A DNA stretch of 64,000 nucleotides from an archaeon (GCA_018697035.1 JABHSE010000004.1:63122-127121), one strand, 5' to 3'; shown: positions 5,057 through 55,326, numbered from the stretch's first letter. A program made the numbers and translations. The notes: generated by a model not told the origin, from the letters alone.

Positions 5057-6253
5057 ATGGACAATCTATGCATACGTTGTAAGGGAAAAGGTCTATGTGG
5101 TCACTCATGCAGAATCTTAGCCAAATTCAAAGACAACGCCCCGAAACCAAAACTTCACTTCTCAGGAAAATCAGCCCCAGAACTTTTCGTCGGAAGAATA
5201 GGCTATCCCTACATCAACGCCGGAATTCTAACACCCCAAGACAACGACAATATATCAAACTTCCCAAGTGCCGAAGAATGGTCAAAACAAAACTTCTCCA
5301 TATCAAACGTCTTAAGACTCCGAGGTCAACTAATCTACGGCAAAGCCCAAACTCACATAAAAATCAACGACAAAATAAAACAAGTCACCCAAGAACTAGC
5401 TTTATCTTCAAAACCAGTCTCAACCGAAATCTTCCTAAAGAAAAAACCAACCATGCAATTCACAGTAGATAAAGTCTTCCAACCCATGACAAATCCAGCA
5501 CCATTAGTAAAAGCAATCCTAGAAGAAAATCCCTTCGTTCCAAAAAAAGTCGACTATCTAATCAACGACACCGACGCAAAATCAGTAGACGTAATAAACG
5601 AACTCTATAAATCAAACACAAAAATAGATCATCTCCAAAAATTATTATCAATCGGATTATTAGGAAAAAAAGCCGCAAGACGAATGGTTCCAACGAGATG
5701 GAGCATAACAGCAACAGACGACACAATCTCAAAAGAACACCTCAAAAAAATCAGATACTTGCCCCACACAAACCAAATAACATTATACTCAGGCAACTTC
5801 CTCGGCAACTACATCGAAGCCCTAATCCTCCCCGGCCCATTCGCATTCGAAGCAATCGAAGCCTGGCAAGCAGGCGCAACATATTCCGGAACCGAAACAG
5901 AAATTTCCCAAGACCACGAAGGCTTTAACGGAAGAAAAAAATATGCATTCAACGTAACCGGCGGCTACTACGCAATGCGTCTCCCCTTAACAGAACACCT
6001 AATAAAAATAAAACGTCAAGCCTCAGTCTTAATGTTCAGAGAAATCCGCCCAGAATACTACGCCCCCCTTGGAGTCGGAATTGTAAGAGAAACAGCAAAA
6101 CGAACATTTCAGGAAAAACCAAAATATTTCGACACAATCAAAGATGCATTACAAGACATTAGCGAAAGAATAGAGACTCCAATAGAAACCATAAAACAAA
6201 AATCCTGGCTTCTAAATAATTACGGCAAACAAAAATCAATCTTCGACTTCTAA
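5057..6253 (+). CDS. archaeal Nre-family DNA repair protein (DUF650/DUF651-like)
   Basis: N-terminal C.RCKGKGLCGHSC cysteine cluster and a length near 400 aa, typical of archaeal NreA/NreB as I recall the family. Confidence 0.6.
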   Translation: MDNLCIRCKGKGLCGHSCRILAKFKDNAPKPKLHFSGKSAPELFVGRIGYPYINAGILTPQDNDNISNFPSAEEWSKQNFSISNVLRLRGQLIYGKAQTHIKINDKIKQVTQELALSSKPVSTEIFLKKKPTMQFTVDKVFQPMTNPAPLVKAILEENPFVPKKVDYLINDTDAKSVDVINELYKSNTKIDHLQKLLSIGLLGKKAARRMVPTRWSITATDDTISKEHLKKIRYLPHTNQITLYSGNFLGNYIEALILPGPFAFEAIEAWQAGATYSGTETEISQDHEGFNGRKKYAFNVTGGYYAMRLPLTEHLIKIKRQASVLMFREIRPEYYAPLGVGIVRETAKRTFQEKPKYFDTIKDALQDISERIETPIETIKQKSWLLNNYGKQKSIFDF

Positions 6254-18063: not shown

Positions 18064-18131
18064 CTATATTTAATCTTAGCTCACCAGAGATACCTAAAGG
18101 GTTAAAAACCAAATCACTTTCACACCAATAC

Positions 18132-18292
18132 GCTCCGTTAGTCTAGTGGCCAAGGATGCCGCCCTCTCAAAGAGGTGGAAAGCCCTCGTCGGTGAGACAA
18201 CGGCTTTATGTTCGCTTGAACAACCACTTGAATCTCTCCTGAGATTCTTTTGGAGAACGGCGGTGACCCGGGTTCAAATCCCGGACGGAGCG
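18132..18292 (+). tRNA. tRNA-Glu(CUC) with a roughly 88-nt intron at the canonical anticodon-loop position
   Basis: Hand fold: acceptor GCTCCGT/ACGGAGC, D arm GTCT-AGTGGCCAA-GGAT, anticodon stem CCGCC/GGCGG, loop CTCTCA.., T arm CCGGG-TTCAAAT-CCCGG. The intron is about 18170-18257, with BHB-like pairing CTCT/GGAG. Confidence 0.8.
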
Positions 18293-18429
18293 TTTTTATT
18301 TCAGGATTTGTTTAAAGTAAATATTTGGGTTTTCTTTAGGAATTTTTAATTCTGTGTCCGAGCTTCTCTGAAGTGAAGGTAAATTGGAATTCCTCAGAAT
18401 TTCATGCCATCAAGACGAGGACGGAGCGT

Positions 18430-27407: not shown

Positions 27408-27728
27408 ATGATAGCTCAATGGATAGCAGTCGCAGTTTTAATTTTCCTAGGTTTCGCTTATTTAAAACTTGAACATCACGGCAACAAAATAAGAATCGCA
27501 ATAATTCTAATAGTAGGAGCAATACTCTATTTTTCAATAATAGGCCACTTCAACACACAAGAAATCGACATAACATCCCCACGAGGAATCGTCAACTCAG
27601 TCTATCTCTACTTCGGCTGGATCGGCAGCACCGCATCATCACTATGGGACATCGGAGTCGACACAACACATATGGTAGGCAATGCAATAAAGATCAACGA
27701 CACAGAAGAAACAAAAAAAACAAGATAA
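27408..27728 (+). CDS. small membrane protein
   Basis: 106-aa ORF with three TM-like segments. Confidence 0.5.
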   Translation: MIAQWIAVAVLIFLGFAYLKLEHHGNKIRIAIILIVGAILYFSIIGHFNTQEIDITSPRGIVNSVYLYFGWIGSTASSLWDIGVDTTHMVGNAIKINDTEETKKTR

Positions 27729-27800
27729 GCCTGGCACGGGGATCAAACCCGCGACCTCCGCATTACCAATGCGACGCTCTATCAACTGAGCTAACCAGGC
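27729..27800 (-). tRNA. tRNA-Thr(GGU)
   Basis: Hand fold of the reverse complement: GCCTGGT-TA-GCTC-AGTTGATA-GAGC-G-TCGCA-TTGGTAA-TGCGG-AGGTC-GCGGG-TTTGATC-CCCGT-GCCAGGC. Confidence 0.85.
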
Positions 27801-27920
27801 ATAATAAAATTCAATGACTCTATCTTATAACTTTATCGATAAGCCGTTACGGGGCGAACGATTTGCGCGAATTTTCTCTACGAAGTGATTAGAAATTTTT
27901 AGTGTGAATCGTGAGTAAAA

Positions 27921-28054
27921 CCCACGACCTCTACATTTTTGGATTTCTTTGAAATTCAAAGCATGAAGGTTCTTTGAACCTACTTTACCAATGTAACGCT
28001 TAATATATGCTGAGGGTCGCGAAGCGAGTCATCCCTTTGGGAAGCTAATCAGGC
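27921..28054 (-). tRNA. tRNA-Thr(GGU)-like gene with long insertions; 3' T-arm and acceptor strand not found
   Basis: Reverse complement: GCCTGAT-TA-GCTT-[40 nt]-AAGC-G-TTACA-TTGGTAA-[49 nt]-TGTAG-AGGTC-GTGGG... Three stem pairs differ from the neighbouring tRNA-Thr by compensatory changes. Confidence 0.45.
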
Positions 28055-28106
28055 ATAGATCTACCCATCCCCAAAATATTATAAACCTTCCTAGCACGAA
28101 TCCGTA

Positions 28107-50382: not shown

Positions 50383-50454
50383 GACGGTTGTAGTTCAATG
50401 GTAGAATGTATGGTTGTGGTCCATGAGACGCGGGTTCGATTCCCGCCTTCCGTC
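50383..50454 (+). tRNA. tRNA-His(GUG) copy 1, with encoded G-1
   Basis: G-ACGGTTG-TA-GTTC-AATGGTA-GAAT-G-TATGG-TTGTGGT-CCATG-AGAC-GCGGG-TTCGATT-CCCGC-CTTCCGT-C. T-T oppositions at 5:68 and 6:67. Confidence 0.8.
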
Positions 50455-50534
50455 CTTTTTCTAGAATTGAATGAAGTTCGATTGAAGACATTTCAATGTC
50501 GAATGCCCGCAGGCCAAGCCTTCCGTCTAAAACC

Positions 50535-52175: not shown

Positions 52176-53162
52176 CTAAATCAACTTCCGAACCCGCTCA
52201 ACCAAATCCGGCCTAACATAATAATGCAACGTCACATCAGACGAATTCTCCCATTCACCCTTAACGATTTTCTTATGCCCCAACTTCTCCGCCAACCCCA
52301 AACAAAACACTCCAACATTGCCCTTATTCTTCTTAGCCAAAAACTTCTCGACCTCTCTAGTCGCAAAATGCGACCGAACAATATGCGGATAAAACCTCTC
52401 CCCACAAAACCTCTCAAATCCAGCCTCAAACTCAACATCCCCAAAAGGTCTCCCCTTACTATTCAAAAAAACAAAATCATCCATCTTCCTCTTGCCCAAA
52501 ACTCGTTTCAACTCAGAAACAACCCTCTCTCCAAAAATCTCTTCAATAACCTGCGGAACCCCATCCTTCCCAATAAAACTAAACCGAACCTTCTTTCCAC
52601 TAATCTGAATATCTTTTTTCTTAAGAGTAGTCAATCCCTTATGTCTACTCCTCTTATAGTAAACCTCACTCCCAACCCTCATCTTCGTCTTAAGCAAAAC
52701 CAACATTGCAAGAACTAACTCACTCGTTCCAAGCGCCTTCATTAAATTTCGGCGAAGCCTAGGTAAACATTTCTCAAAATCATCAACCAACTTAAACTTC
52801 TTATCTTTAGAGATCTTCATCTTATCCAAACTATAAATATAACAAAGACTACCACTGGGATTCTCAAAAATAACGTCCCAATGTCCATGCGACTTCTCAT
52901 CATGAATTGCCAACTTAGAAGCAAACAAAGGAAACGCCTTGTTTAACTTCGTGCCATCGGGCAAAATCCCAATTCTTTTTCCAATACTCCTCCCCTTGCA
53001 AAATCCCCCCATCAAAAAATCTCCATCTCGAATCATCTTCAAATTCCCATGCTTCTTAAAAAGTTGAGCAACAGTCATAGCCTCCGGAAATTTAACCTTA
53101 GATTTCCGACCTCTTTCATCAACAACAGCCAAATCAGAAAACCGAATCCTATAACACCTCAT
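52176..53162 (-). CDS. type IB DNA topoisomerase (small poxvirus/bacterial-like form)
   Basis: MRVGSEVY...GLTTLKKKDI...V.FSFIGKDGV, IVRSHFAT, LGH, and a C-terminal ..TLHYYV candidate catalytic Tyr. Confidence 0.65.
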   Translation of the reverse strand: MRCYRIRFSDLAVVDERGRKSKVKFPEAMTVAQLFKKHGNLKMIRDGDFLMGGFCKGRSIGKRIGILPDGTKLNKAFPLFASKLAIHDEKSHGHWDVIFENPSGSLCYIYSLDKMKISKDKKFKLVDDFEKCLPRLRRNLMKALGTSELVLAMLVLLKTKMRVGSEVYYKRSRHKGLTTLKKKDIQISGKKVRFSFIGKDGVPQVIEEIFGERVVSELKRVLGKRKMDDFVFLNSKGRPFGDVEFEAGFERFCGERFYPHIVRSHFATREVEKFLAKKNKGNVGVFCLGLAEKLGHKKIVKGEWENSSDVTLHYYVRPDLVERVRKLI

Positions 53163-55241: not shown

Positions 55242-55253
55242 CTTGTCCTCCAA

Positions 55254-55326
55254 GGCGGAAGGCGGGAATCGAACCCACATTATACGGACCACAACCATAT
55301 GTACTAACCATTATACTACAACCGCC
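55254..55326 (-). tRNA. tRNA-His(GUG) copy 2, with encoded G-1, 12 nt upstream of hisS
   Basis: Reverse complement: G-GCGGTTG-TA-GTAT-AATGGTTA-GTAC-A-TATGG-TTGTGGT-CCGTA-TAAT-GTGGG-TTCGATT-CCCGC-CTTCCGC-C. Confidence 0.8.

Follow-up and report, generated by a model that had tools for sequence, protein, structure and literature searches.

A probable relic of an ancestral intron-containing tRNA-Thr(GGU) gene, with a structured hairpin in its T loop, next to an intact isoacceptor gene in a DPANN archaeon

The window, i.e. the whole stretch of archaeal DNA that was analysed (64 kb, positions counted from its first letter), carries a tRNA pseudogene at 28054-27842 on the minus strand, for which readings as a multi-intron or as a split tRNA fail the tests that define them. 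It is probably the non-functional relic of the original intron-containing tRNA-Thr(GGU) gene of this lineage. The relic, here named tRNA2, consists of tRNA-like exons, three insertions and a corrupted acceptor 3' strand; the intact gene tRNA1, with the same anticodon, follows it 41 nt downstream in direct orientation. The preliminary description had placed a second tRNA-Thr(GGU)-like sequence upstream of the intact gene and on the same strand, which the minus-strand sequence confirms. The features of the locus are the following.

28079-28085, minus strand: TATA box TTTATAA, 24 nt upstream of the relic 5' end; the motif is conserved in relatives, putative promoter
27842-28054, minus strand: whole tRNA-Thr(GGU) relic tRNA2, 213 nt (sequence, nhmmer pieces, in-silico splicing)
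28042-28054, minus strand: acceptor 5' strand GCCTGAT, TA and D-stem 5' strand GCTT, aligning to positions 1-13 of the intact gene
28002-28041, minus strand: 40-nt D-loop region of the relic
28012-28041, minus strand: 30-nt D-loop insertion CCCAAAGGGATGACTCGCTTCGCGACCCTC, no BHB motif (negative BHB scans, alignment to relatives)
27997-28011, minus strand: decayed D-loop remainder AGCATATATT, D-stem 3' strand AAGC and G26
27986-27996, minus strand: anticodon stem 5' strand TTACA and loop TTGGTA (anticodon GGT), identical to L151 copy A
27937-27985, minus strand: canonical 37/38 intron of 49 nt with a strict BHB motif (BHB scan, ARAGORN, alignment to L155)
27921-27936, minus strand: A38, anticodon stem 3' strand TGTAG, variable loop AGGTC and T-stem 5' strand GTGGG
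27849-27926, core 27852-27923, plus strand: long, strand-specific hairpin element H (homologs, covariation, folding)
27842-27853, minus strand: 3' remnant, with T-stem 3' strand CCCGT, AAC, GGC and discriminator T
27801-27841, minus strand: spacer with AAAGTTATAAGA (TTATAA at 27825-27830), 87% identical to the L028 spacer
27728-27800, minus strand: intact intron-less tRNA-Thr(GGU) gene tRNA1 (ARAGORN; Rfam tRNA, 57.5 bits)

The window has a G+C content of 38.6% and encodes a PheRS beta chain of archaeal type; the nearest genomes are Pacearchaeota, Woesearchaeota and Nanoarchaeota MAGs, with PheT identities of 58-77%. Contigs encoding an identical neighbouring protein come from marine samples, including the JGI record SI39no09_200m, and the gene order PheT, small ORFs, ORF164, tRNA-Thr(GGU), ORF106 and His-phosphatase is kept in relatives. 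The relic region is identical across 10 independent contigs from several samples, and it is therefore not an assembly artefact; no variation within the relic and no deletion variants occur among these contigs, the population being clonal here. In the 407-nt intergenic region the sole polymorphism of the 10 contigs is at window position 27752, a G to A change in the tRNA sense that affects position 49 of the intact gene; an A-U pair replaces the G49.U65 wobble, so the structure is preserved. Two short contigs (L025 and L026) are identical to the window in the tRNA region, but from position 27726 on, towards lower numbers and directly beyond the 3' terminus of tRNA1, they diverge from it completely, which could reflect either strain-level variation or a chimeric contig end. 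Sequences of this organism were not found in the 3 metatranscriptomes of the source study.

The exon blocks, the GGT loop, the 40-nt D-loop region and the 49-nt insertion at 37/38 are all present as had been described. The likeness of the relic to tRNA-Thr exceeds chance; with a profile HMM built from tRNA-Thr genes of relatives, its exon blocks are the second and third best matches in the 64 kb (E = 0.0037 and 0.028), colinear and on one strand. Three base pairs are altered on both sides between the two genes and all of them pair still, in agreement with the earlier reading: the D stem is GCTC/GAGC in the intact gene and GCTT/AAGC in the relic, while the anticodon stem is TCGCA/TGCGG in the former and TTACA/TGTAG in the latter. 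The segment AGCATATATT of the relic and the AAGC-G behind it, at 27997-28001 on the minus strand, correspond to AGTTGATA-GAGC-G in the intact gene.

ARAGORN does not call the relic as a tRNA, with or without introns, and no match to the Rfam tRNA family RF00005 was obtained at E <= 10 on 501 nt or at E <= 1 on the whole window. The relic is still rejected by ARAGORN after in-silico deletion of all three insertions, while swapping the 3' strand alone to ATCAGGCT leads to a tRNA-Thr(GGU) call, and with the other lesions mended and the 49-nt intron kept the program reads i(38,49). Thus, the 5' two-thirds of the relic and its canonical intron are of tRNA grade, and the remainder is broken. The 3' strand AACGGC, in place of ATCAGGC, allows at most three contiguous acceptor pairs and not a 7-bp acceptor stem. 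In the D loop, G18 and position 19 are lost, with no G after position 15 in AGCATATATT, and the T loop is broken off after TTT, so that the set of conserved tertiary nucleotides (G18, 19:56, T54-T55-N56-R57-A58) is incomplete.

The same description had reported that the strand ATCAGGC was missing and that no 3' end was visible. The former holds; however, a 3' end does exist, as CCCGT-AAC-GGC-T, behind an insertion of about 70 nt. With its trailer included, the sequence CCCGT-AAC-GGC-T-TATC of the relic matches CCCGT-GCCA-GGC-T-TATC of the intact gene, and the relic is therefore full length, from 28054 to 27842, with a third insertion. CCCGT lies at 27849-27853 and AAC, GGC and T at 27842-27848, where AAC stands for the 4 nt that the intact gene has at positions 66-69; the acceptor 3' strand is corrupted at these positions, and the related locus L028 carries the identical corrupted end, CCCCGTAACGGCTTAT. 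The third insertion is in the T loop, following GTGGG-T and preceding the 3' remnant. In blastn comparison with the relatives, 27852-27923 is about 82% identical to a segment beside the tRNA-Thr gene of L002, inverted relative to its flanks; in L002, L006 and L132 this hairpin segment is found inside a downstream tRNA 3' fragment, laid out as GTCRYGGG, the segment, and TCCCC with the acceptor 3' strand and T. A simple inversion of an L002-like arrangement predicts, by eye, the wrong flanks beyond 9 nt, and an alternative T arm, TCGTG/CACGA followed by TTCACAC, offers no acceptor pairing by eye.

At the 37/38 site, the pairing TTGG/CCAA with 3-nt bulges had been called BHB-like, and the BHB scan recovers exactly this, as a strict BHB motif with the central helix TTGG/CCAA, the bulges TAA and AAA and an outer helix of 5 bp; cuts at the intron borders restore the loop TTGGTAA. 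The anticodon arm and intron of the relic have 92% mean column identity with the intact tRNA-Thr(GGU) gene of L155, whose intron is 50 nt long and whose neighbouring protein is 79% identical to that of the window. The first hairpin of the two introns differs by one compensated pair, AGGTTC/GAACCT in the relic vs AGTTTC/GAAACT in L155. The introns by themselves are about 90% identical, and judged from this alignment the intron of the relic is orthologous to that of the intact L155 gene. Long canonical introns are also in use elsewhere in this genome, as a tRNA-Glu(CUC) gene with an 88-nt intron lies at window 18131-18293 on the plus strand; it is detected by Rfam (46.4 bits) and by the intron mode of ARAGORN, and missed by default ARAGORN.

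The earlier proposal of a multi-intron tRNA with a third non-canonical intron was right in that a further insertion exists; this insertion, however, has no BHB motif, the D loop is decayed and the acceptor is unpaired. In the scan of 28060-27830, where 3 of 4 helix pairs were tolerated, neither a strict nor a relaxed (hBH/HBh') BHB motif was found for the D-loop or the T-loop insertion, and only the canonical intron qualified. An hBH-like match around the hairpin (AGGTCG/CGGCTT, TGGG/CCCG, bulges TTT and TAA) fails to rebuild a T arm, and matches of this sort are frequent by chance in the same scan; the related loop insertions of relatives have no BHB motif either. A functional three-intron tRNA-Thr(GGU), processed by a broad-specificity DPANN endonuclease and with its acceptor mismatches tolerated or repaired, is accordingly a very improbable reading. 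The perfect BHB motif of the canonical intron and the full pairing of the exonic D and anticodon stems speak for it, as does the background that some DPANN tRNA sets look incomplete and that an L3 loop in DPANN endonucleases is associated with more disrupted tRNA genes (PMC5829648). Like the multi-intron tRNAs of Thermoproteales and some DPANN archaea (PMC4090602, PMC5829648), the relic has insertions in the D loop, at 37/38 and in the T loop, and a strict canonical BHB motif; unlike them, its two non-canonical insertions are without BHB and its exons form no acceptor stem. Indeed, no BHB of either kind restores the D arm or the T arm, G18 and a partner at position 19 are absent from the D loop, the T-loop insert has an orientation inverse to that of its homologs and its fold is on the opposite strand, the fully 'spliced' form with AACGGC is rejected, the copy in L028 has an A-C mismatch in its anticodon stem, and an intact isoacceptor gene adjoins.

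Split tRNA genes exist in Nanoarchaeum equitans and Caldivirga maquilingensis, 'recently split' tRNAs are known too, and split tRNAs are normally the sole source of their tRNA. The relic resembles them in offering the 5' portion of a tRNA but no usable 3' portion, and in its DPANN host, Nanoarchaeum being of this group as well; a split or trans-spliced tRNA had been suggested. It differs from them in having its own 3' remnant in cis, no evident complementary leader and trailer, and an intact isoacceptor gene next to it. Moreover, no T arm with RTCAGGC is found elsewhere in the 64-kb window, all 14 RTCAGGC sites being without a T arm. The possibility that the relic is the 5' part of a tRNA whose 3' half is encoded elsewhere is thus the slightest of those considered here. 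Some encouragement for it comes from the relative L151, where a 5' fragment (positions 1-44, acceptor GCCCGAT) stands behind the old promoter and upstream of an intact gene (GCCTGAT/GTCAGGC), after which come a T-arm remnant in inverted orientation and a 3' fragment with the terminus ATCGGGC; this end matches GCCCGAT of the upstream fragment and not the intact gene, so that matching fragments flank the latter. However, the L151 3' fragment has a T stem of 3 bp and an unspliceable loop insertion. Trailer and leader in L151 have, by eye, only a 6-bp palindromic match (ACACGT/ACGTGT). Cis-splicing of the 5' part of the relic to the 3' part of the intact gene was also considered and rejected by eye, with no BHB helix and an A6-C67 acceptor mismatch.

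The reading of the sequence as a relic of the ancestral gene draws on its position as well as on its intron. In relatives a conserved TATA box fronts their single tRNA-Thr(GGU) gene; a GGTTTATAAGATTTTGGGG-like motif with equal spacing precedes the intact genes of L015, L155, L154, L159, L151 and others. As the TATA box of the window has the same distance from the relic and the intron matches that of L155, the relic is the ortholog of the ancestral intron-containing gene. A partially decayed duplicate had been offered as one option: decay is evident, while a fresh duplicate of the intact gene does not fit, since what decayed is the promoter-proximal, intron-containing ancestral gene.

The compensatory stem changes had been taken as a sign of selection on the fold, and this stands for past selection in a working gene but not for selection on the present copy. 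The anticodon stem TTACA/TGTAG is identical in L151 copy A, and TTACA/TGTAA is found in L155, L015 and L007; because the allele occurs in relatives, the selection belongs to a working gene in the past and not to this copy, and the stem differences between relic and tRNA1 therefore record two alleles, each shaped in working genes. The change of the D-stem pair C13-G22 to T13-A22, which is compensated, is the only lineage-specific stem change of the relic.

The intact gene tRNA1 has exons identical to those of the intron-containing gene of L031, and TTATAA at 27825-27830 is likely a separate TATA box for it. It is presumably the working copy, on which decoding would depend. Inspection by eye of tRNA1 and the relatives' tRNA-Thr genes shows covariation of the tertiary pair 19:56, the D loop AGTTGATA being combined with the T loop TTTGATC (A19:U56) and the D loop AGTTGGTA with TTCAATC, TTCGATC or TCCGATC (G19:C56).

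A coherent scheme can be proposed for the relic of the ancestral gene. The relic has kept the ancestral promoter position and the ancestral 37/38 intron with its working-looking BHB motif, and its acceptor-5', D-stem, anticodon-arm and T-stem-5' sequences have remained tRNA-like. Decoding would be the task of the downstream intron-less tRNA1. Recombination at a tRNA-Thr hot spot of this clade may have given rise to the pair, whether by integration, by duplication or by gene conversion involving another tRNA-Thr allele. Transcription of the relic from its old promoter probably persists, but such a transcript could not mature into a tRNA.

Comparison of the relatives points to the tRNA-Thr locus as a recombination hot spot that is unstable across this clade. 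Besides the arrangement of L151, an upstream 5' fragment whose D loop has gained about 56 nt occurs in L010, and downstream 3' fragments with an insertion of about 31 nt after T56 are present in L028, L031, L151, L154 and L159. The 30-nt D-loop insertion of the relic has 77% mean column identity with these ~31-nt T-loop insertions, and both consist of a CCC-NNN-GGG hairpin followed by a GCTTCGC motif. Cargo of about 1.1 kb lies between the gene and a 3' fragment in L015, L027, L029 and L157, and comprises unknown ORFs or two PF10107 endonucleases; the latter are two tandem genes at 774-1762 of L157, PF10107 being an endonuclease family related to the archaeal Holliday-junction resolvase. The tRNA-Thr gene is inverted in L004 and L005, and in L160 the promoter is kept and the gene has moved. 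No integrase was found at any of the relatives' loci examined, and the neighbours in the window are conserved chromosomal genes; neither integrase nor cargo occurs between relic and tRNA1, so integration is suggested by the relatives only.

The same relic is present in L028, with a neighbouring protein 80% identical, the same tandem layout and the same T-loop segment in the same orientation. Its relic has no D-loop insertion, an 18-nt intron and a mismatched anticodon stem, TTACA/TGCGG, and pairing is therefore not maintained in L028. Identity between window and L028 is 87% for the relic exons and 87% for the 3' remnant with spacer, vs 70-81% for flanking coding DNA. As the corrupted relic is common to both, it is old, and its decay is not visibly faster than that of its surroundings. 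Such slow divergence keeps a residual function under consideration, but it can also be explained by gene conversion. Indeed, in L126, a strain variant of L028, the intron of the relic has been copied into the intact gene, replacing its own, which demonstrates gene conversion between the copies. The L126 locus (1696 nt) further contains two tandem copies of a ~97-nt downstream 3'-fragment unit, and as a whole it indicates ongoing unequal crossing-over and gene conversion.

Against a mere relic stand the intact BHB motif and promoter, the lineage-specific compensated D-stem pair, and the persistence of the unit despite the age of its corrupted state, which is common to L028, with the hairpin H under selection. 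The slow divergence together with these features leaves room for a retained non-decoding role: the relic might be kept as the strong ancestral promoter and the 5' leader of a dicistronic precursor that also yields tRNA1, or as the home of the selected hairpin. This explanation is unlikely, although clearly less so than either of the tRNA readings. It agrees with the strong, strand-specific covariation of H in five lineages, with the 87% identity to L028 of the whole cassette of relic, hairpin and spacer, above that of the flanking genes, with the intact promoter and BHB motif, and with the absence of deletion variants in the 10 contigs of a clonal population. However, tRNA1 has its own TATA-like box, H folds on the strand opposite to the relic, and gene conversion as in L126 accounts for the slow divergence as well; moreover, in L002, L006 and L132 the hairpin is carried by short 3' fragments without the 5' tRNA part, and H therefore does not need the relic. 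The decayed ancestral gene remains the preferred explanation.

The hairpin element H, which fills the T loop of the relic in antisense orientation, has homologs in L028/L126, L002, L006 and L132. The five distinct homologs (window, L028, L002, L132 and L006) share one long hairpin fold, with 97.1% of alignment cells paired and 5 pairs altered on both sides; the covariation score was reached by 0 of 500 shuffles, and slid controls show none. On the folded strand the alignment contains 11 G.U cells and no A.C cell, and in the window the plus strand folds at -21 kcal/mol vs -14.9 for the minus strand; in L002 and L132 the two strands differ more. In the window and L028, the strand that folds is therefore the antisense strand of the relic, whereas in L002, L006 and L132 it has the sense of the tRNA fragments; the last of these three is a tRNA-Thr(CGU) locus. 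H always occupies the T loop of a tRNA-Thr copy or fragment that is disabled and adjoins an intact gene, and in 359 kb its covariance model detects one copy at each locus.

From this pattern of substitution H is clearly under structural selection. No Rfam match was obtained for it; the search of IMG/VR gave 0 hits, and searches of phages and plasmids returned matches at chance level only. A scan of metagenomes with a loose hairpin pattern gave at least 118 matches, mostly chance and of high GC, with L126 and L132 as the only true homologs among the matches listed; at least 3 hairpin-like contigs from other organisms were found in the sediment run X11, a library labelled metatranscriptomic ChIP-Seq. 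Assignment of H as a C/D-box RNA, an H/ACA RNA, a K-turn or a BHB intron was rejected by eye, as the motifs are inconsistent across homologs. As a guess, H belongs to a recombination process acting on T arms, or is its footprint. It is tentatively viewed, as a possibility that falls well short of probable, as a previously undescribed strand-specific structured RNA or ssDNA element of disabled tRNA-Thr T loops in Pacearchaeota/Woesearchaeota-like archaea, and possibly as the core of a mobile or recombination element targeting T arms. If it were a mobile element, H could arrive with a replacement tRNA copy, or be tolerated owing to such a copy, and the ~30-nt D-loop hairpin-pair insertion would belong to this process as its second member. 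H may be the only part of the relic that is new; being under structural selection and matching nothing known, it could lead to something new.

Among known systems, a similar arrangement is found at the tRNA-Thr(GGU) locus of Caldiarchaeum subterraneum, where a 5' fragment, tRNA-Thr-F, lies upstream of the intact tRNA-Thr-II; Sugahara et al. [quoted passage not shown] The two loci are alike in the isoacceptor, in the defective 5'-side copy located upstream in direct orientation, in the differing intron content of the copies and in an origin ascribed to recombination or integration at a tRNA gene (PMC3293823). In Caldiarchaeum, however, the fragment comprises positions 1-27 and is found 1.8 kb upstream of the intact gene, a recombinase gene lying between the two (PMC3293823), whereas the relic is near full length (213 nt), lies 41 nt upstream without a recombinase, bears insertions in two loops, of which one is a conserved hairpin, and shows no heterogeneity within the population. 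Integrative elements of archaea classically leave direct repeats of tRNA gene parts as attL/attR (PMC3293823), and the series of intact gene, cargo and direct partial 3' copy in L015, L027, L029 and L157 resembles integration of the SSV or pNOB8 type; differently from the latter, no integrase is found at these loci, the window has no cargo, and the fragments often bear insertions and inverted T-arm pieces.

For annotation, the relic should be counted as a pseudogene and not as a second or multi-intron tRNA-Thr. The window and its relatives make up a natural series of tRNA disruption states in uncultivated DPANN archaea, from an intact intron-containing gene, through a gene with fragments and a near-full-length relic that bears loop insertions, to 5' and 3' fragments flanking a replacement gene. 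It agrees with the published proposal that fragments and intron-like insertions, possible raw material for split and multi-intron tRNAs, result from recombination at tRNA genes.

Some further observations concern the surroundings of the locus and of its relatives. In several lineages the PheRS-beta matches span 150-490 bp more than the 1644-bp query (L001 8001-10134, L004 4396-6290, L010 6833-8620 and L015 8001-9880), which suggests an insertion, either an intein or an extra domain, in some lineages. In L003, a Pacearchaeota sequence, a match to the Rfam RT-16 RNA (71.4 bits, gathering score 50) is present at 5143-5269 on the minus strand, about 3 kb upstream of the PheT gene. Finally, two different tRNA-His(GUG) genes in inverted orientation, at window 50384-50455 on the plus strand and 55253-55326 on the minus strand, flank a segment of about 4.8 kb that encodes HisRS, PRA-CH, an epimerase and a 328-aa ORF (52176-53162). 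The HisRS ORF as listed overlaps the second tRNA-His gene, and the 328-aa ORF has topoisomerase-IB matches together with weak tyrosine-recombinase matches; this segment may be another rearranged or acquired tRNA locus.
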